Shown: positions 40,778-62,630 of the stretch, one piece after another
Numbering within the stretch: position 1 is the first letter of the stretch
Layout: each line of letters opens with the position of its first letter
Assembly (NCBI GenBank): GCA_030637655.1
Contig: DAOWGI010000005.1
Span: 4,766 to 68,765, forward strand
Direction: 5' to 3'
Origin: a candidate division FCPU426 bacterium
GTDB taxonomy: Bacteria > Oederibacteriota > JAAXVQ01 > JAUVAV01
DNA length: 64,000 nt
Notes under the pieces: model-generated
What the model saw: the letters and a program-made list of their open reading frames with translations, nothing else
What the model was told of the DNA's origin: nothing
Database searches by the model: none
Translations under genes and position numbers: made by a program

Positions 40778-41100
40778 ACCTGCTTTCCGAAATTAGTATC
40801 TTAGTTCTCAAATTCGTGCTTTTTATCCGCCTTCGCAGAAGACCCCGGCCTTGGCCTAAGATGAATGCGTAAGTTGCTACGGCGTGATGTCGCCCCACCA
40901 CTTGGGCGGATAACCGCGGCGAAGCCGGGTATTCCGGGTACCACGGGCTTGTCCGTGGGGCTCCATGGCAGAAAATTATTCGCCGTAAAGAGCGCAAAGA
41001 ATTTTTTTTGTCAGGATAACAGGATTGACAGAATTTATTTAAAATCCCGTACATCCTGTTAATCCTGTCAAATATCTTTAGTTCCGGCTTGTCCGGGTTA
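40778..41100 (-). repeat. ~160-bp repeat (family E) carrying a 140-nt GC-rich insertion; second uninterrupted copy at 57629..57790
   Basis: rc(41100..40986) and rc(40844..40778) align with 57629..57790; first 3 nt overlap rnd stop codon. Confidence 0.6.
40845..40985 (-). ncRNA. candidate structured RNA / mini insertion (GC-rich, multiple stems) inside family E repeat
   Basis: ~65% GC island in AT-rich intergenic DNA; stems ccacgg/ccgtgg, ccgg/ccgg, ggcc/ggcc; preceded on the minus strand by TTGACA-N17-like promoter sequence; absent from the paralogous copy at 57629. Confidence 0.3.
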
Positions 41101-49870: not shown

Positions 49871-51655
49871 TTAACCGGCATAATTCCGTTTGAATATTTT
49901 ATCCAGCTCATCCCAGGAAAGGCGAAAAATATAAGGTCTTCCGTGCGGACAGGTCGGCAATCCTTTCAGGGCTCGCATTTGTTTGATGAGTGCCAGCATG
50001 CTTTCCGGTTGCAGGCGTTCTCCGGCTTTCACAGCTGCTTTGCAGGCCATGCTCTGCAAAATTTTTTCTCTAAACTTGTTTTTATCCATCAGCTTACCGG
50101 TCTCAGCCAGCCACTCAATAACCTCATTGACAATGGCAATCAAATCTCCCTGCGGAAATTGATCCGGTTGGGTTTGAATGGTAAAAGTATTGCCGCCCAA
50201 AGGTGATATTTCCAAACCCATCTCAGAAAACAGTTCCCTTGCCTCAGTGAGCAATCCGGTTTGCGAAGGCTTAAGTTCAAACGTTAAAGGCAGCAATAAA
50301 TTTTGCCGGGGCAAGTCCCGTGGCCATTGCAAAAAGGATTCATAAAGAATTCTTTCGTGAACAGCATGTTGATCCACCAGGAAAAAGCCTTGTTCATCTT
50401 GCACGGCAATATAGGTCCGGCCGACCTGACCAATGACACGCAATGCAACTTCCGCGGATGGTTCTTCCCCGATAGGGGCGCGATTAATCGCGCCCCTACC
50501 ATCTATATATGTAGCAATCGATTCTTTCACCCGGTCTTGGGACCAACCCATTGGCAAGGATTGCGGAGAATAAGTAGGGGCGCGATTAATCGCGCCCCTA
50601 CTTGGTTTTTCCTTAGATGTTGAAATATGCAATAAACTCGAGGGTTTACTGCCGGTCAGATCTCCTTGCTGCAGCACATTTTGGATAGTGGTATAAACCA
50701 AATTGTGAATACCATGTTCATCACGCAAACGCACTTCTCTTTTAGCAGGATGCACATTAACATCAACCAGATGATTAGGCATGGTGAAGAACAAATAGCA
50801 GATCGGAAAACGGCCTTCCGGTATTAGTGTCCTATAGGCTTGAATCACAGCATGCGCGATACCACGATGTTCAACCGGGCGTTGATTGATGAAAAAGCGC
50901 ATGCCGAGCCTGGTATTGCGATGATCAGAGGGATTCGCAATTCGTCCTCGAATCCAAATCCCGCCTGCTTCCCTCTCCACTGGCAGCATATTTTGCGGTA
51001 AAGCACTTCCATACAGTGTTGCCAAGCGGTCGGATAATATTTTAGTAGGCGGACAATTAAAAAGTTCACGCCGGTCTACAATCAGTTTAAAACCAACACG
51101 TTTGTGCGCAATAGCGGCCAACTCTACGACTTGTACAATATGGGATTGTTCAGTGGAATGAGTTTTCATAAATTTGCGGCGGGCCGGAGTATTAAAAAAG
51201 AGATCTTCAACAACAATCGTAGTTCCGGCCGCGCAACCGGTTTCGCCTTTTGACGTGATCTTGCCGCCGGAGAGTTTCATGCGAAATCCCACCGATTTTT
51301 TTTCCGGCCGCGTTAAAATTTCCACCTGGGAGACCGCGGCAATGGATGGCAGGGCTTCCCCGCGAAAACCCAAAGTGTCAATATTTTCCAAATCTTCCGC
51401 TTTACTGATTTTACTGGTCGCGTGCCGGGAAAACGCCAATTGGGCATCCTCCACATTCATACCCTGGCCATCGTCAGTCACGCGTATACTTTGGAAACCG
51501 GCACTTTTAATTTCCACTTCAATTCTGGTCGCCTTGGCATCCAGGGCGTTTTCAAGCAACTCTTTAACCACCGCAGCCGGACGTTCCACCACCTCGCCGG
51601 CGGCAATCAGATTGGCAACCTGATCCGATAATATTTTAATATGTGTATTGGTCAT
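49871..51655 (-). CDS. mutL: DNA mismatch repair protein MutL (with two in-frame REP insertions in linker)
   Basis: GHKL ATPase motifs (ELLENALDA, DDGQGM, GFRGEAL) and C-terminal dimerisation domain; linker contains 2x RGAINRAP encoded by REPs. Confidence 0.9.
   Translation of the reverse strand: MTNTHIKILSDQVANLIAAGEVVERPAAVVKELLENALDAKATRIEVEIKSAGFQSIRVTDDGQGMNVEDAQLAFSRHATSKISKAEDLENIDTLGFRGEALPSIAAVSQVEILTRPEKKSVGFRMKLSGGKITSKGETGCAAGTTIVVEDLFFNTPARRKFMKTHSTEQSHIVQVVELAAIAHKRVGFKLIVDRRELFNCPPTKILSDRLATLYGSALPQNMLPVEREAGGIWIRGRIANPSDHRNTRLGMRFFINQRPVEHRGIAHAVIQAYRTLIPEGRFPICYLFFTMPNHLVDVNVHPAKREVRLRDEHGIHNLVYTTIQNVLQQGDLTGSKPSSLLHISTSKEKPSRGAINRAPTYSPQSLPMGWSQDRVKESIATYIDGRGAINRAPIGEEPSAEVALRVIGQVGRTYIAVQDEQGFFLVDQHAVHERILYESFLQWPRDLPRQNLLLPLTFELKPSQTGLLTEARELFSEMGLEISPLGGNTFTIQTQPDQFPQGDLIAIVNEVIEWLAETGKLMDKNKFREKILQSMACKAAVKAGERLQPESMLALIKQMRALKGLPTCPHGRPYIFRLSWDELDKIFKRNYAG
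50470..50498. repeat. REP-like palindrome (ataggggcgcgattaatcgcgcccctac) inside mutL
   Basis: perfect palindrome; in-frame. Confidence 0.7.
50574..50601. repeat. REP-like palindrome (gtaggggcgcgattaatcgcgcccctac) inside mutL
   Basis: perfect palindrome; in-frame. Confidence 0.7.
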
Positions 51656-51672
51656 AATGTCGTGTCCTTATC

Positions 51673-51700
51673 GTAGAGACGCCCAATTTGGGCGTCTCTC
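51673..51700. repeat. REP-like palindrome gtagagacgcccaatttgggcgtctctc
   Basis: same stem family, loop ccaatttgg. Confidence 0.65.
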
Positions 51701-51782
51701 TTGATTTTCATGGTATTTTTATACCTTGTTTTTGGGATTGTGTCAATTTATGGGTGAATTGATAATGATTGATAATGATATT

Positions 51783-51811
51783 GTAGAGACGCCCAATTTG
51801 GGCGTCTCTAC
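51783..51811. repeat. REP-like palindrome gtagagacgcccaatttgggcgtctctac
   Basis: second copy 110 bp downstream. Confidence 0.65.
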
Positions 51812-52121
51812 GTTTGGTGTCCTCACGTTTTTTTCGTCCCCCATCCCCGCGCCTCCTATGTTTTTTATTCAATTGGTATGACAGGAAAAAGAGGATTTTC
51901 TTGCAGGTTATTTTTAATTATCAGGATTGGGTTTTGAGGGAATATTATCTAGAGTCATGATTCATGAGCGTCCCGGAACATGCATTTGCTCCATTTATTG
52001 CCTTCTATCAACTTCCCATACATTGGCTGTTGAACTAGTGAAAAAGCGAACATTGATACTTCCAGGCCCGGAATTTTCGCGTTGAAATTGTTCATATAAA
52101 AAACCTCTTTCATAGTTTACT

Positions 52122-52499
52122 TTATTTCAAATAAACCATGGCCTCCATCTCAATCCGGCAGCTAGCTGGCAAGGCAGCTACCTGCACTACTGCCCGGGCA
52201 GGATACGGTGCCAAGAAAAATTCCTGGTATATTTTATTCATGTCCTGAAACTCTTTGAGATCAGTCATGTAAACCGTGACTTTTGCTGCCTGGGATTTCT
52301 GCGCCTGGCTGGCAATTAGTATTGCTTCCAGGTTACGGAATACCTGCTGGGTCTGTTCAACAATTCCCGGACCAACCAATTTAGCAGTAGTTGAATCCAA
52401 TGGAATCTGGCCGGAAATAAACATCCACTCCCCGGCTTTTACTGCCTGGGAATAGGGCCCAATGGGCTGCGGCGCTTGATTAGTTAAAATAGGTATCAT
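52122..52499 (-). CDS. ridA: RidA/YjgF family enamine-imine deaminase
   Basis: 125 aa; conserved YjgF fold motifs (PARAVVQVAALP...). Confidence 0.8.
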   Translation of the reverse strand: MIPILTNQAPQPIGPYSQAVKAGEWMFISGQIPLDSTTAKLVGPGIVEQTQQVFRNLEAILIASQAQKSQAAKVTVYMTDLKEFQDMNKIYQEFFLAPYPARAVVQVAALPASCRIEMEAMVYLK

Positions 52500-52511
52500 C
52501 TCTCCACCTCT

Positions 52512-53423
52512 TTAAAAATCATCTGGTAATTTAAATACTGTTTCTTTTATTGAAAAATCAACTGAAATATCTTCATCTGGATTTTGTGGTATGTAACTGA
52601 AATATATTTGTTCGGGTCTGAATCTATAATTCCGTTCCTCATTTCCTCTCACATTCACACTAAGTTGATCTGAAATCTTCGCATCTACAATTTCAAAAAG
52701 CTTGCATAGCAACGATTCATCTTCGTTGGACTTTTTCTTATTTAGAGCATCCACAACTTTTATTCTTTTTGAACTGTCCCTATAATGAAAACAGCCATTT
52801 CTAATCAGGTTATTGGCACGTCCAAATAATCTTCCGACCATCTTTTGCATTTTCTTTTTATCCATCCTGGGATAGCTTTTAATTTTATCTTTGCATTTAT
52901 CACATAATTTTATTTTTTTACACTCATCACAAAGTATCTCTTTTTGATCTTTTCCAACAATCCTTTCACACTCTAACCATAAATTCCTGAAAGCATCTAC
53001 CGAGGTAGTTGAATTATTCGCTAACCACAGGTAAAACAATTCTTCCTTTTTTTGACCCCATGTTTTTTCAATATCTGAAATATTTGTTAAAAAGATATAA
53101 CGAGGATTTTTCGAATAACTCATTTCAATACCATGACGCATAGCTTTCCCTGGCTCGCTCTTTATTATGAACCGGATCGCTTTTATTTGAATAGGAAAAG
53201 ATAATATAAACGAAACAGATTGCAGCCAATCTAACAGGTCGCCATCAATTATTTTTTGTGTTTCATCACTAGACTTGGCTTCAAAATCAAGATAAATTTG
53301 CAATACTCCATTTTGATTGTTTTGATTAGGTATTGTAATTATTACATTTCCATTTTTAAATATATGCTCAAAATTTGTTTTTAATCTCGTTTCTAAGTCA
53401 ACCACAATTCTGTATTTATTCAT
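52512..53423 (-). CDS. Abi-like protein with putative HEPN (R-x4-H) motif and zinc ribbon
   Basis: 303 aa, AT-rich codon usage; CDECKKIKLCDKCKDK (2x CxxC) and LIRNGCFHY (R-x4-H); lies downstream of AbiE pair. Confidence 0.35.
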   Translation of the reverse strand: MNKYRIVVDLETRLKTNFEHIFKNGNVIITIPNQNNQNGVLQIYLDFEAKSSDETQKIIDGDLLDWLQSVSFILSFPIQIKAIRFIIKSEPGKAMRHGIEMSYSKNPRYIFLTNISDIEKTWGQKKEELFYLWLANNSTTSVDAFRNLWLECERIVGKDQKEILCDECKKIKLCDKCKDKIKSYPRMDKKKMQKMVGRLFGRANNLIRNGCFHYRDSSKRIKVVDALNKKKSNEDESLLCKLFEIVDAKISDQLSVNVRGNEERNYRFRPEQIYFSYIPQNPDEDISVDFSIKETVFKLPDDF

Positions 53424-53532
53424 ACATCACCATTTTTAATTTGTCATTGCCTGTGCCCTCTGGGTACGAGGTGCATTTTACCGAAGCAATCTCAAAAACG
53501 AAAAATAGATGGCTTCTGCGCTGCACACAACA

Positions 53533-54450
53533 TCAACTCCAAGGACCACTCTTGGCCCAGCTCGTTGGGGTAGGACCAGGGCCGACAGCCGCCTTCATAG
53601 GAAGTAGCAGGAAGTCCCTGAGACGCGAAAGCAGTTCCAGAAATTCAGGCACACCTTCTTCGAGACCGCTCCTGCGAACGAATGCTCTCCACTGGACCGA
53701 TTTCACTTCGTCGCTGCTGAACTCATCCGTCAGGACCAACGGCGGCTCGCTTGGGATGTTGGTCTTGCGTCTCTTGAAGGTCGCTTGTATTGCCCGGACA
53801 AGGATATTGCCGTCGAAGGCGAAGTCCCGCGCCAGCACGTAAAGATCGTAGAAATCCTTCATTCGGCTGTTTGCAATACCCAACATGACCATGGCCTGAA
53901 ATTTCTCGGCAACTACTGTTTCACGCGGGCAGGCCCGAATGCTTGGGACCGGGAAATCCAGAAGCGTGGGATAGCTGATCTTCTTGGCCTTGGGTGTGAC
54001 TACGTCACCAAATCCCACATCGACCTGGATGGGAATTCGAGCCTTGCCAAGGAGTGCCGTTAGCGTGACGCGCTGTCCCGGGTATTCCTGTTCTTCACGG
54101 ATGGGCATGGCATTCACGGTGTTGATATCGAATATCAGGCCGTCAGGTTCGACATCAATACCGCACAGGCTGCGGAATACTTCCGTAAGCCGCTCACTGG
54201 AATTGTCACCATAGCCAAGAAAGTCCATGTCCATTGTTGGCCTGTATGACTGTCCCGTCCAAACCATGAACAGCATGGCTCCCTTGAGTATGAAATCCCC
54301 GGCATACGAAGAGACGGAAAGGCGGTAGAGGAGCCTTTCCGTCGCATAACGCGTCCAAACAAAGTTCGGGTCGTCTCCGGTTTCGCGGATTATGTTGAGA
54401 AGCCGCTGGCGAACAGATGCCGCGACGTTCGATGGCTTGTCCTTGGTCAT
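53533..54450 (-). CDS. abiEii: AbiEii/AbiGii-family nucleotidyltransferase toxin (DUF1814)
   Basis: N-terminal SVRQRLLNIIRETGDDPNFVWTRYATERLLYRLS... canonical; GC-rich relative to flanks. Confidence 0.8.
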   Translation of the reverse strand: MTKDKPSNVAASVRQRLLNIIRETGDDPNFVWTRYATERLLYRLSVSSYAGDFILKGAMLFMVWTGQSYRPTMDMDFLGYGDNSSERLTEVFRSLCGIDVEPDGLIFDINTVNAMPIREEQEYPGQRVTLTALLGKARIPIQVDVGFGDVVTPKAKKISYPTLLDFPVPSIRACPRETVVAEKFQAMVMLGIANSRMKDFYDLYVLARDFAFDGNILVRAIQATFKRRKTNIPSEPPLVLTDEFSSDEVKSVQWRAFVRRSGLEEGVPEFLELLSRLRDFLLLPMKAAVGPGPTPTSWAKSGPWS

Positions 54451-55073
54451 ACGATTGCTTCCATGTACGGACGCATGGTCTTGGTCACCCGGCAGATCTT
54501 AGCATACTTCCATAGCTCATCAGTCGAGCGCTTTCGGCCACGCAAAAATTCTCTGAGCGCTTCGAGCGCAACGTCAAGCCCGATCTTGTTCCTGTACTTG
54601 AAGCAGTCTGCCACGGTCTTGGCGGGGTTGTAGATTCTGACCTGTACGCCTTCAATAGTGTGCTCATCGATACCGTCGGTAAGTGCCTTACCAGAGAAAC
54701 GAACAATCCGTGTTTTGGGGTGCCTCGCTCGCGGACGCGCGGCCCTCCGGTTGAGAGCCATCCAGACTTTGTGAGGAGCCTGTGTTCCGATTTCGTGGAA
54801 ACGAAGGGCGGAGAGCAAGCATATTACCCCCTTGGGAACAGCCTTTACCGCCTGCGCTAGTCCGTGGTAAGCTGTTACATCGGCATCCGGCAGACTATAC
54901 AGCCCACGACCATCGCGCACGAGTTTTCCTTTAGCGCACATCTGCCGCAGGTACTCATGGTGAATCCCGTGTGAACGCACCTCGGCTGTGCTCAAAACAC
55001 CTGTATTGCGAGCGAGTTCCAGTATCTGCCCTGTCTTTCCGCCGCTTTTTTTCATATGCGTAATTATATTCAT
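54447..55073 (-). CDS. abiEi: AbiEi-family antitoxin / transcriptional regulator
   Basis: ~200 aa wHTH + C-terminal domain; 4-bp overlap with abiEii. Confidence 0.7.
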   Translation of the reverse strand: MNIITHMKKSGGKTGQILELARNTGVLSTAEVRSHGIHHEYLRQMCAKGKLVRDGRGLYSLPDADVTAYHGLAQAVKAVPKGVICLLSALRFHEIGTQAPHKVWMALNRRAARPRARHPKTRIVRFSGKALTDGIDEHTIEGVQVRIYNPAKTVADCFKYRNKIGLDVALEALREFLRGRKRSTDELWKYAKICRVTKTMRPYMEAIV

Positions 55074-55160
55074 TTTCTAATAAATGTCAATAGTTTAGCA
55101 AAAAGAAATTCGGTGGTGCTGGAGCATTCACTTTGCGTAACTATTCACACTTTTCCGGCC

Positions 55161-55583
55161 CTAAAATGTTGCACTTCTGCTTACAATTCGCCCTTCATCC
55201 AGTTTGGCGATATGCTTTTCAAATTCAAAATGATCAATGATTTCACGAGCGCGTTTGGAAAAACTCTTAATATAATGGCTGAGATTTTTTGTAATATTGG
55301 CAGGCTCACCCTTTAATTTATCAAATGTGAATTTGCTAATGTTATGGAATGATTGACTAGCAACCCGGTTTAAAACCGGTTCAAGATTCTTTACTTTACT
55401 GCTCTTGATGCTTTGGTATTTGGCCAGCACCTTTTCTTTGGTAGGTTCCAACACACAATCCAAACGCCTTAAAACCGTCATTGGCAGTATAACATCTTTG
55501 TATTTTGGTTCGGTCGGTAGGGACCCACGTAATAAATCCTCTACCTGCCATATAAAACTAACTTTTTCGTTAAAATTGTTCAT
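55161..55583 (-). pseudogene. N-terminal fragment of type I restriction-modification N6-adenine methyltransferase (HsdM N-domain)
   Basis: SFIWQVEDLLRG...YKDVILPMTVLRRLD matches HsdM_N; ORF stops after 140 aa, methylase catalytic domain absent. Confidence 0.55.
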
Positions 55584-55587
55584 TAAG

Positions 55588-55615
55588 GTAGGGAACAGGC
55601 ATGCCTGTTCCCTAC
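55588..55615. repeat. REP-like palindrome gtagggaacaggcatgcctgttccctac
   Basis: perfect palindrome with GTAG/CTAC ends. Confidence 0.6.
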
Positions 55616-55699
55616 GGTCTATTCAAATTTGAGACAGCCAGACGGTCACGGATGATGTCGTTTTATACGCGCCAATTATTTGCGGTATCGGTTTTATCT

Positions 55700-55727
55700 G
55701 TAGGGAACGGTCGCGACCGTTCCCTAC
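55700..55727. repeat. REP-like palindrome gtagggaacggtcgcgaccgttccctac
   Basis: same stem as 55588 copy, different loop. Confidence 0.6.
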
Positions 55728-55837
55728 GAAACAATGATCATCCCCGACAATTCGCACGACACCGCTTATTTTGGTTGCTAGAGATTATAAAAGAGCGGCG
55801 CGGCGCGATTAATCACGCCCCTATAATTAAATATGTT

Positions 55838-56596
55838 TTACCATGTTGTTCGAAATAAAAGTCCGGCGCCTCCCGGCAACCAGGCTACGGACCATTCACA
55901 ATCTTCGGATTCAACCAAATATCCCTCATCACCACTGATATAAATACTGTTTTCCAAGTAATAAGTTAATACCGTAGCTGCGGACCAGGCCACGAATAAA
56001 CCACCGGCTTCCCACCAATCACTATTGATGGCTTGGCCCACACCAGGAACCATAGAGGCCATTCCAGTCCACAAAGCAGCCGTTCGATCACGCTGTTCGC
56101 GATAACTGCAATTGGTAGCATGCAGCATGGCATAGGTCATAATACCATTTCTTAAAACCAAGGCAGAATAATAAAACGGCAGCAGAGATTGATTCTCAGG
56201 TTGTCGTTTACGGGTAAATTCCAGTTGACCGACAGTTCCCCAGGACATCCCGGCAACAAACAAAAGCAACCCCCCTTGCAGATAATCCTCATTGATCATT
56301 TGTCCTACCCCGGGAAGCAGCGAGGAGGTCCCGATCCAAAACGCATCATTTTCCTTCTCACCGCGCTCCACAGCGGTTATTATGGCTTCCAAGGTCGCAT
56401 AGCGTTTCAGGAGAAAGATGCTGCTTTCGTGCAATTCCCGCAGATTACTCAATTGCATAAACAAAAAGGACTCATGTTGTTGATTTTTCATCCCAGGATA
56501 CGCAGGTTGATAAGTTTGTTCGGAATTTTGTGCCTTGACCAGATTGGTACTTAGCAAACTAATCATCAGGATTGATCCTACAAGTCTTAATCGCAT
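55838..56596 (-). CDS. hypothetical secreted protein with two GVGQ-containing repeats
   Basis: Start at ATG 56596 (AGGAGCA RBS, signal peptide MRLRLVGSILMISLLSTNLVKA); ORF-track N-extension overlaps MBL gene and is rejected. Confidence 0.4.
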   Translation of the reverse strand: MRLRLVGSILMISLLSTNLVKAQNSEQTYQPAYPGMKNQQHESFLFMQLSNLRELHESSIFLLKRYATLEAIITAVERGEKENDAFWIGTSSLLPGVGQMINEDYLQGGLLLFVAGMSWGTVGQLEFTRKRQPENQSLLPFYYSALVLRNGIMTYAMLHATNCSYREQRDRTAALWTGMASMVPGVGQAINSDWWEAGGLFVAWSAATVLTYYLENSIYISGDEGYLVESEDCEWSVAWLPGGAGLLFRTTW

Positions 56597-56606
56597 GATA
56601 TGCTCC

Positions 56607-57260
56607 TTAAAAAATAATTTCCTTCCGCAAAAACGGGTTTTGTCGCTTTTCATTTCCGATGCTCGTTTGGGGGCCATGCCCGGGAAATACCAATGTTTCC
56701 TCTGGCAGGGATAATAACTGTTTATGAATGCTGTGTAATATCGTCCGTATGTTCCCCCCCGGTATATCAGTTCTTCCAATGGATTCGCGAAACAAAGTGT
56801 CGCCGGAAAAAAGAAAGGATTCAATTCGAATACAAACAGATCCTGGAGAGTGGCCCGGAGTCTCAATAACTTCTACCGGCTCTCCTCCCAGCTGCAGCTC
56901 AAATCCCTGTTCCAGTACTTGATTCGCGTCCGGCGAGGTAATTTTTGTTCCAAACGTTTGTGAAAAATTCAAAGCCGGATCCAGTAACATCGGACGATCT
57001 TTACCATGAATAAACAATGGCGCCTGGGTCGCTTCCTGGAAAAATCTGTTACCGGCAATATGATCCGCATGACCATGCGTGTTTATTATGGCTTTTATTT
57101 CAAGGTCTTCCGATTGGATGGTTTGCAGGAGTCCCAGATCCGGAGCGCCCGGATCAATGATAATGGCATGTTTGGAATCGATCTCCCGGAAAAGATAGCA
57201 ATTGGTTTCCAACCAACCCATTGGAAATACGCGAAGGATAAAACGATCCTGTTTAGGCAT
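56607..57260 (-). CDS. MBL-fold metallo-hydrolase (glyoxalase II-like)
   Basis: HGHADH motif and downstream His/Asp ligands. Confidence 0.75.
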   Translation of the reverse strand: MPKQDRFILRVFPMGWLETNCYLFREIDSKHAIIIDPGAPDLGLLQTIQSEDLEIKAIINTHGHADHIAGNRFFQEATQAPLFIHGKDRPMLLDPALNFSQTFGTKITSPDANQVLEQGFELQLGGEPVEVIETPGHSPGSVCIRIESFLFSGDTLFRESIGRTDIPGGNIRTILHSIHKQLLSLPEETLVFPGHGPQTSIGNEKRQNPFLRKEIIF

Positions 57261-57628: not shown

Positions 57629-57790
57629 TAACCCGGACAAGCCGGAACCAAAAATATTTGACAGGATTAACCGGATATACGGGATTTTAAATAAATCCTG
57701 TCAATTCTGTCAAAAGAAATTATTTGCGTGCTGATCGGCGAATAATTTTCTGCCATAAAAAGCACGAATTTGAGAAATAAGTTACTAATA
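57629..57790 (+). repeat. family E repeat, uninterrupted copy
   Basis: aligns with rc of 41100..40778 minus the 140-nt GC-rich insert; contains TTGACAGGATTAAC...TTTTAAAT promoter-like segment. Confidence 0.6.
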
Positions 57791-61812: not shown

Positions 61813-62630
61813 ATATATGCCAACAGCGCGGCCTGAATTGGACCCAACCCCCACCGGTTTACGGATCCACTCACCGAGGTATCCCGCGTTGCAACAATAT
61901 CTGATAGGCAATCCATCTATCCCCTTCGGAATAATAAACTGCCAGTGCGGCACCAGCCGGCTGTGATCGTCTATGGTTGCCAGCAGATACGTCTTCTTCC
62001 GCCTCCTGTTTTTCTCCACCTGCGCGGTCCATACATGGCTTCGGATTGCTACAAATCATTTGGATTCTCTGCCTCAAACCGCCTCTGATCCACTGCGGAC
62101 GGCAACGCTGGCTTCATCTTTTCGGCTCAATGCAAAAAACAGTACAGCGGGCTTTCCGCTAACTCCTCTTCTTTCGCGATTTCGCGCTTTTGCAGTTCCA
62201 GGCGTAACCGCGGTATGGAAGCGCGCGGCATCTCGGCTCTCATCAGCAAAATCCCTTCCCCCAATTCGCTCCCCAGTACCCGCTTTGCCCGCGGTCCTCA
62301 CGCACCTGCGGATACAACGACTTCAGCTTTCGCCCTCCGGCCAGATAACGGTGCTGCCAATGCTTGATTGTGCTTTTCGAAATCCGCGTTCGGTATGTCC
62401 CGGGTATTTTATACCTCTGCTCAGACTTCTCCCGCAAAAGCCGCTCCTGCCTCCCTTAGTCCGGCTCGTTCCCACTCACAAACTCCGAAATAACTCCGAA
62501 CCGGAACACTGCCACCTGCTTTTTCGCTTCTTCGTCCATCTTTTGCCTCCTGGTTTAGTTTTTTACTGCTCCCAGGGAGGCCATCACGTCTGATTATAAT
62601 GACACTCGTAGGTTGGCTGGTGGCTGGCAT
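61780..62630 (-). pseudogene. IS481/IS3-type DDE transposase (rve integrase core) remnant, frameshifted and C-terminally truncated
   Basis: LLATIDDHSRLV (D..HSR integrase core motif) in 61780..62019; upstream fragments in two other frames (62243..62437, 62421..62630); GC-rich vs flanking repeats. Confidence 0.5.

Follow-up and report, generated by a model that had tools for sequence, protein, structure and literature searches.

The AbiE systems of Streptococcus agalactiae and Lactococcus are bicistronic type IV toxin-antitoxin (TA) modules whose two genes overlap by 4 nucleotides (nt) and are transcribed from a promoter of their own (PMC3985639). The toxin AbiEii is recognized by a set of motifs that was defined experimentally, namely hG[G/S]x15DhD, a family-specific Arg, a Lys in motif III and +DxxD in motif IV (Dy et al. 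2014, PMC3985639). Another group of proteins found in defence loci, the HEPN RNase toxins (Ymh/PF09509, AbiD/F, RiboL-PSP-HEPN), is marked by a conserved Rx4-6H in which the Arg is followed by a polar residue, and by an upstream acidic residue, typically in the context E-x3-[KR] (Anantharaman et al. 2013, PMC3710099). HEPN genes embedded in restriction-modification (R-M) operons have been documented, as has a HEPN family whose members are fused to an L-PSP domain (PMC3710099). An AbiE pair is described here from the window, the 64,000-nt stretch of contig DAOWGI010000005.1 of an uncultured candidate division FCPU426 bacterium that was analysed as a whole. The pair lies between a remnant of the type I methyltransferase gene hsdM and a 303-codon gene of a very rare family, called orf303 below.

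The interval between mutL and a DUF5683-like gene (51656-55837, 4182 bp) differs from that of related genomes. It is probably a 4.2-kb patchwork of horizontally acquired DNA, situated where two relatives have a glycosyltransferase gene. The patchwork would consist of an inactive stub, the 5' end of a type I hsdM, an autonomous GC-rich cassette (about 1.75 kb) in which abiEi and abiEii follow a consensus promoter of their own, the AT-rich and intact orf303, and ridA. The four tandem minus-strand open reading frames (ORFs) on which an earlier, sequence-only reading of this DNA was built are all present where it had placed them. They are a type I methyltransferase N-terminal ORF (55161-55583, 140 amino acids), abiEi (first listed as 54447-55073), abiEii (53533-54450, 305 amino acids) and orf303 (52512-53423, 303 amino acids).

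The composition of these genes was compared with that of 42 other ORFs of at least 150 amino acids in the window, which have a GC content of 0.444±0.028 and a GC content at third codon positions (GC3) of 0.439±0.040. The abiEii gene (GC 0.547, GC3 0.631; z +3.6 and +4.8) and the abiEi gene (GC 0.536, GC3 0.584; z +3.2 and +3.7) are GC-rich. In the other direction, orf303 has a GC of 0.309 and a GC3 of 0.260 (z -4.8 and -4.5), and the hsdM stub a GC of 0.371 and a GC3 of 0.369 (z -2.6 and -1.8). The three compositional layers that had been read into the four ORFs are real when profiled by GC and codon position against this background, and the GC-rich string quoted in their favour is found at about 53554-53593. 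In 60-bp windows the GC content climbs from 0.27 to 0.63 across 53380-53599 and drops from 0.52 to 0.32 across 54990-55089, which places the GC-rich cassette at roughly 53440-55190.

The history of the interval was examined by comparison with two distant relatives, having protein identities of 62% for MutL and 50-56% for DUF5683. The nearest genome in GTDB, a candidate division FCPU426 metagenome-assembled genome (MAG) and the source of the 62% figure, has the gene order STAS-MBL-DUF5683-[707-residue PMT_2/TPR glycosyltransferase]-mutL, with no ridA, hsdM, AbiE or orf303 at the DUF5683-mutL site. In a JGI metagenome relative, a gene homologous to this PMT_2/TPR glycosyltransferase comes after MCP-STAS-MBL-DUF5683. 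In the available sequence of both relatives ridA was not found by tblastn, and neither carries a type I or other R-M gene at the locus. An intact type I system at this place, which would have spoken against the sequence-only reading, is seen in neither of the two. Conversely, there is no trace of the relatives' glycosyltransferase in the window, spacers included. The gene order in the relatives shows that the variable unit is the whole of 51656-55837, ridA and both of the spacers that bear repetitive extragenic palindrome (REP) elements included. The island proposed by the sequence-only reading is a real variable segment, wider than was drawn there. Parsimony suggests that the patch replaced the glycosyltransferase.

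Several observations weigh against this account of the interval. Both relatives are distant, so that the replacement of the glycosyltransferase is an argument from parsimony. Contigs with identical ridA or DUF5683 proteins all have the same arrangement, and no island-free haplotype was found among them. The composition of ridA is host-like (GC 0.474, GC3 0.500; z +1.0 and +1.5), so that, instead of being imported, the gene may long have been resident or may have moved here from elsewhere in the host genome. No mobility gene or integrase, tRNA or convincing flanking repeat that could account for its arrival was found at the borders of the patch; tRNA genes and structured RNAs are absent from the window. 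The events may have come in any order, and the pieces may have been brought together either at this site or already in a donor. An apparent 100-bp insertion in one scaffold proved to be a gap of Ns.

The AbiE pair is, as judged from its sequence, genuine and intact. AbiEi (antitoxin/repressor) matches the PADLOC AbiEi profile (4.6e-84) over positions 5-197 of 198, and its N-terminal winged-helix domain matches Pfam AbiEi_4 (PF13338, 1.4e-10), so that the domain organization of the prototypes, a winged-helix N-terminus with a full-length C-terminal part, is found here as well. The likely true start is the ATG at 55055, the gene callers' choice, which gives a protein of 202 amino acids (54447-55055, minus strand) that aligns over its full length with plasmid homologues. 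The end of abiEi and the beginning of abiEii share 4 nt (ATGA, 54447-54450), the same overlap as in the prototypes. AbiEii, of the DUF1814 family, matches PF08843 (1.3e-49, 169.8 bits against a cut-off of 22.5) over profile positions 1-236 of 238 and the PADLOC profile (1.2e-118) over positions 2-298 of 299.

Motifs I to IV of the prototypes can all be located in AbiEii. Motifs I and II are formed by G57-A58-x15-D74-M-D76, with R70 four residues ahead of D74. The Ala at the second glycine position occurs in AbiEii homologues, and a G50A mutant was still toxic (Dy et al. 2014, PMC3985639). Motif III is represented by K183 (in AEK), its Arg counterpart being ambiguous, and motif IV by K198-D199-F-Y-D202. 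When AbiEii is aligned with three plasmid homologues (46-52% identity), none of these motif residues varies. The family calls that had been made for AbiEi and AbiEii, like that for the HsdM fragment, hold in Pfam and PADLOC.

The pair has its own promoter, in common with the characterized systems. A consensus sigma-70 promoter, TTGACA-16-TATAAT, is situated at 55063-55090 on the minus strand, with the -10 element ending 7 nt before the ATG at 55055. It agrees with the consensus at 12 of 12 positions and is the sole perfect site in 51600-56000. This geometry suggests a leaderless or near-leaderless transcript, in contrast to S. agalactiae abiE, which is transcribed from a point 26 nt ahead of the ATG (Dy et al. 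2014, PMC3985639). A second difference from S. agalactiae AbiEi is that no operator inverted repeats were recognized at the promoter in a repeat search. A direct repeat, TGAATA(N1-3)TTACGCA, seen by eye, brackets the promoter (55134-55149 and 55057-55073, minus strand) and is a candidate AbiEi operator.

The closest annotated plasmid homologues, in the three best contexts, are stand-alone pairs beside replication or recombinase genes. The idea that AbiE travels on plasmids as part of type I operons was rejected, as no hsd operon is present in these contexts. The pair differs from these homologues in sequence, with only about 50% identity to the nearest of them, and from the prototypes in its location, a patch in the chromosome of an uncultured bacterium of the FCPU426 lineage. 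The cassette is a new member of the AbiE family. The three single-nucleotide differences in the pair between the window and a contig from sample SAMN18200496 are all synonymous. A scan of viral contigs returned nothing relevant for AbiEii, nor for orf303.

Because the pair is intact, has the checked catalytic motifs and is preceded by a perfect promoter, it probably represents the one functional module of known type in the patch. Its activity and its defence function are assigned by homology. If it behaves as the characterized AbiE systems do, AbiEi would repress the operon and neutralize AbiEii. Once AbiEi is lost or can no longer keep up, for example during phage infection or loss of the locus, the AbiEii nucleotidyltransferase would halt growth. 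The growth arrest would provide an abortive-infection defence and would also make the cell addicted to the segment. Such addiction could explain why the cassette is intact while its neighbour decays.

That neighbour, the 140-residue hsdM ORF, matches Pfam HsdM_N (PF12161, 4.9e-23) and aligns with the PADLOC profile MTase_I (PDLC03029) over positions 4-133 of 661 only. In tblastn alignments, longer homologues reach only to their residues 128-132, which correspond to 55191-55197 in the window. The HsdM homology extends over 55191-55583 (residues 1 to about 131) and is followed by nine unrelated codons and a stop. In its homologous part the stub is 65-72% identical to the N-terminal domains of HsdM from many environmental type I systems. 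The long form of type I HsdM, of about 660 residues, has an N6_Mtase catalytic domain and a C-terminal tail that are both missing from the stub, and hsdS and hsdR are absent from the 64 kb. The missing C-terminal part of hsdM, with hsdS and hsdR, had been proposed to be sought in the genome; in the window, where the search was made, queries for these and for embedded accessory genes, taken from three related type I loci, gave no tblastn match at E<=0.1. No promoter-like site was found upstream of the stub.

The decay of hsdM, as the sequence-only reading had it, is also visible in the population. The organism is present in four metagenome samples, in one of which (SAMN18200496) a 134-bp deletion, 55489-55622, takes out the palindrome at 55588-55615, the stub start codon and the first ~32 codons (~95 nt). 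The contig is elsewhere more than 99.7% identical to the window over ~10 kb. The deletion variant shows that the decay of the stub is still ongoing. The stub is accordingly regarded as a pseudogene or remnant encoding the N-terminal helical domain only, with which neither methylation nor restriction would be possible.

A displaced continuation of hsdM was considered at 41010-41072 (tblastn E 0.014-0.5) and rejected. The match is to an intergenic dispersed repeat and has no further similarity. This repeat, translating as …RINRIYGILNK(S/F)CQ…, is found in at least two intergenic places, at ~41010-41072 and ~57650-57710.

Three type I loci with HsdM N-termini like that of the stub have accessory genes embedded between hsdM and hsdS/hsdR. 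These genes are Hypoth_Ymh (a HEPN family) of 265-274 residues in two of the loci, Fic, and AAA ATPases. The loci come from long-read assemblies, in which many genes are split by frameshifts. They show that the HsdM subfamily of the stub typically resides in operons with embedded accessory genes.

Two other histories of the patch were weighed, neither of them probable. In one, which follows the suggestion of successive events at a defence hotspot, a complete type I system was eroded at this site by insertions (AbiE, orf303) and deletions until only the 5' end of hsdM was left. The position of the stub next to other cargo, its ongoing decay and the REP-like palindromes on both sides speak for this, as does a 24-nt sequence just beyond ridA, at 52072-52095, that repeats the hsdM start with marginal significance. 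However, both relatives carry the glycosyltransferase and no R-M gene at this place, neither the interval nor the rest of the 64 kb has yielded a remnant of hsdS or hsdR, and the cargo is known here in one lineage only. The GC content of the stub, 0.37, is also unlike that of the host, so that the stub itself appears to be imported and could have come pre-truncated. Nothing shows that a complete type I system formerly resided at the site. What stands of the suggestion is the mosaic of compositionally foreign DNA, with cargo in one lineage and one intact known defence module, from which a hotspot can be conjectured.

The second history, of similarly low probability, has two layers. The stub and orf303 would derive from one AT-rich type I operon in which a toxin-like accessory gene followed hsdM, and AbiE would have been inserted between them later, deleting the 3' 80% of hsdM. 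Both genes are AT-rich relative to the host, accessory genes do directly follow hsdM in the related full-length loci that were examined, HEPN genes are known to be embedded in R-M operons (PMC3710099), and orf303 carries a conserved R-x4-H motif. Against this history, none of the five orf303 homologues is near hsd genes, no hsdS or hsdR follows orf303, and orf303 has no profile similarity to Ymh (hhalign probability 1.4%). The GC3 values of the stub and orf303 are moreover unequal, 0.37 against 0.26.

It is most improbable that the 140-residue HsdM_N protein is a functional stand-alone product, such as a regulator or decoy of type I enzymes, for despite its open frame with an ATG start and the many short HsdM_N-only proteins in databases, the short matches that were inspected are frameshifted full-length genes, the last nine codons merely run into a stop, no promoter-like site precedes the ORF, the population variant removes its start, and no partner type I system is present in the 64 kb. 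The top 120 homologues of the stub are all short (106-241 residues), with several of those on long contigs stopping close to residue 130. A recurrent hsdM breakpoint was considered on this account and dropped, since the three that were inspected, from long-read assemblies, have the N6_Mtase part immediately downstream.

The third component, orf303, had been labelled "Abi-like", a label for which no support was found. The protein has no match in Pfam, PADLOC, NCBIfam, PHROG or the sequences of the PDB. Among 5.8 billion protein clusters, searched by word index, it was matched by no entry but its own, a hypothetical protein annotated in a "bacterium" MAG (GCA_023139775.1). When 1.84 billion representatives were screened exhaustively with phmmer, five weak matches emerged, with E values of 1e-4 to 8e-4. 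Four of these have 310-320 residues and one is truncated. They are collinear with orf303 from a shared MxKY… N-terminus, at 19-23% identity, and their homology is clear. G92, R96, F145, L150 and E153 are invariant across the family, and a CxxC element is shared too. R208-NGCF-H213 of orf303 is aligned with RQQVFH, RQKAFH, RHKLFH and RNAVFH in all four full-length homologues.

The orf303 protein has an N-terminal alpha/beta domain with a conserved KSEPG..R (residues 87-96) and a helical C-terminal part that contains E153, two CxxC elements (165-168 and 174-177) and R208-x4-H213. The gene is preceded by GGTGA, a Shine-Dalgarno-like sequence 4 nt upstream of the ATG. Its homologues stand alone in unrelated neighbourhoods, in the gap between an FtsX/MacB permease gene and DUF169, beside a RelE/MqsA-like pair, beside a PD-(D/E)XK gene and among unknown genes. 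A conserved partner gene was looked for and rejected, the neighbours of two homologues being unrelated to each other and to the family. The sequence is best read as an intact gene of a genuine, selected and very rare family, scattered sporadically as conflict genes typically are.

Judged from motif conservation, the product of orf303 is most likely a stand-alone toxin- or defence-type effector with an active site that would include E153, R208 and H213. The opposing possibility, that orf303 is unrelated cargo, or a decaying ORF kept by chance in AT-rich DNA, with no part in defence or toxicity, is the less likely one. No family, fold or conserved neighbourhood points to a function, and an R-x4-H string arises by chance in 16% of shuffles of the orf303 sequence. 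Nevertheless, 303 open codons are improbable in DNA of 31% GC, and a Shine-Dalgarno-like sequence is in place. Five collinear homologues of similar length, with shared invariant residues and the aligned R-x4-H, point to a selected fold and site. The sporadic and variable contexts, once with a RelE/MqsA-like pair and once with a PD-(D/E)XK gene, follow the pattern of conflict genes.

Such an effector could be an RNase of HEPN-like type that carries a zinc-ribbon-like insert. The family has the Rx4-6H of HEPN proteins, with a polar residue (N, Q or H) after the Arg in all four full-length homologues, in addition to an invariant upstream Glu and a predicted helical region. In its location, too, orf303 resembles the HEPN toxins of defence loci: it adjoins a TA pair and an hsdM remnant and lies 12 nt upstream of an L-PSP/RidA gene.

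A number of results weigh against such chemistry. E153 stands in the context E-x3-G rather than E-x3-[KR]. HEPN profiles of Pfam, PADLOC, NCBIfam and PHROG gave no match to any of the six family members, which match no Abi or other family in these libraries either, with the exception of weak zinc-ribbon-type matches. Models by AlphaFold had a predicted local distance difference test (pLDDT) score of 35 from the single sequence and of 50 from six sequences. Only the N-terminal ~100 residues came near 70, and the C-terminal half, in the six-sequence model, stayed below 50. A Foldseek search of the PDB with the model gave template-modelling (TM) scores of about 0.2 and nothing meaningful. The likeness to HEPN toxins is at the level of motifs, and the homologues of orf303 differ from HEPN toxins in not being beside L-PSP or R-M genes. 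An identification of orf303 as a Ymh-type protein, another known HEPN or an Abi protein was rejected, every profile test being negative. HEPN-like chemistry in orf303 is a hypothesis of fairly low probability. Equally tentative is the fuller proposal that orf303 and its five homologues constitute a new, very rare stand-alone conflict family of ~300-320 residues, acting as HEPN-like, metal-independent RNase toxins or abortive-infection effectors and moving on their own between variable regions. A weaker extension still is that orf303 and ridA would be co-transcribed from the abiE promoter, echoing the HEPN-L-PSP fusion.

The ridA gene (52122-52499, minus strand; Endoribonuclease L-PSP family, PF01042, 2.8e-36) is situated 12 nt downstream of orf303 and is separated by a 466-bp spacer from mutL (49871-51655, minus strand, 594 amino acids). 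On the opposite flank, Pfam annotation identifies the DUF5683-like gene and an MBL-fold gene (56607-57260, minus strand). The latter has a "faint" precomputed match to Anti-Pycsar_Apyc1 and is probably an ordinary host hydrolase, because it is syntenic in both relatives. Farther away, a 206-residue ORF on the plus strand (61973-62593) resembles AbiE, with a GC of 0.541 and a synonymous codon usage more atypical than that of any other background ORF. It is without a Pfam match and may be another imported gene.

The window contains six palindromes of 28-29 nt of the form GTAG…CTAC. On the hsdM side of the patch, two perfect 28-nt REP-like palindromes of the form GTAGGGAAC…GTTCCCTAC are found at 55700-55727 (GTAGGGAACGGTCGCGACCGTTCCCTAC) and, 5 nt upstream of the stub ATG, at 55588-55615 (GTAGGGAACAGGCATGCCTGTTCCCTAC). 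A degenerate copy of the GCGCGATTAATCACGC (GCGCGATTAATCGCGC) REP core is at 55803-55818. The ridA-mutL spacer has two GTAGAGACGCC-type palindromes, a perfect one, GTAGAGACGCCCAATTTGGGCGTCTCTAC, at 51783-51811 and a slightly degenerate second copy, altered at one arm end, at 51672-51699. The upstream pair with its degenerate REP and the two REPs in the spacer had all been noticed by the sequence-only reading.

The elements look like a lineage-specific family of REP-type repeats. They resemble REPs with a GTAG head in being (near-)perfect palindromes of 28-29 nt that start with GTAG and end with CTAC, in being mostly intergenic, and in occurring as several sequence variants with the ends common to all. 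They differ in that the GTAGGGAAC variant is restricted, within the window, to this locus, and in that another variant has two in-frame copies within mutL. No GTAG…CTAC element was found in 11.5 kb and 3.1 kb of sequence from the two related genomes.

The two mutL copies, of the GTAGGGGCGCGATTAATCGCGCCCCTAC type (50478-50493 and 50574-50601), are in the inter-domain linker of MutL, and each encodes RGAINRAP. The MutL of the FCPU426 relative has neither REP peptide, the first being a 7-residue gap in the alignment. This looks like an insertion of repeat elements that is tolerated in a coding region. In a contig from sample SAMN18200495, mutL is called as a 536-residue protein and a 71-residue piece, as against 594 residues in the window, which suggests a frameshift or a repeat-associated variant.

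The 24-nt direct repeat of the hsdM start (55560-55583) at 52072-52095 is 26 nt downstream of ridA and has 83% identity. The shared pattern is ATGAACAATTT..AACG..AAA, encoding MNNFN.K, and the repeat opens a 46-codon ORF that was predicted by the gene callers too. No other site in the window matches the hsdM start as well, but its score was reached in 2 of 500 shuffles and is only marginally above chance. The similarity may be fortuitous or may mark a second remnant of an hsdM 5' end.

The locus is of an ordinary mosaic kind and is a further example of a TA cassette that persists beside a decaying R-M remnant in imported DNA, here in the poorly sampled FCPU426 lineage. As the variable unit is the whole DUF5683-mutL interval, ridA should not be annotated as a fixed flank. 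Only orf303 merits follow-up. Its family has about six members among billions of proteins and a conserved candidate active site, which makes it a candidate for an inexpensive screen for toxicity or phage defence.

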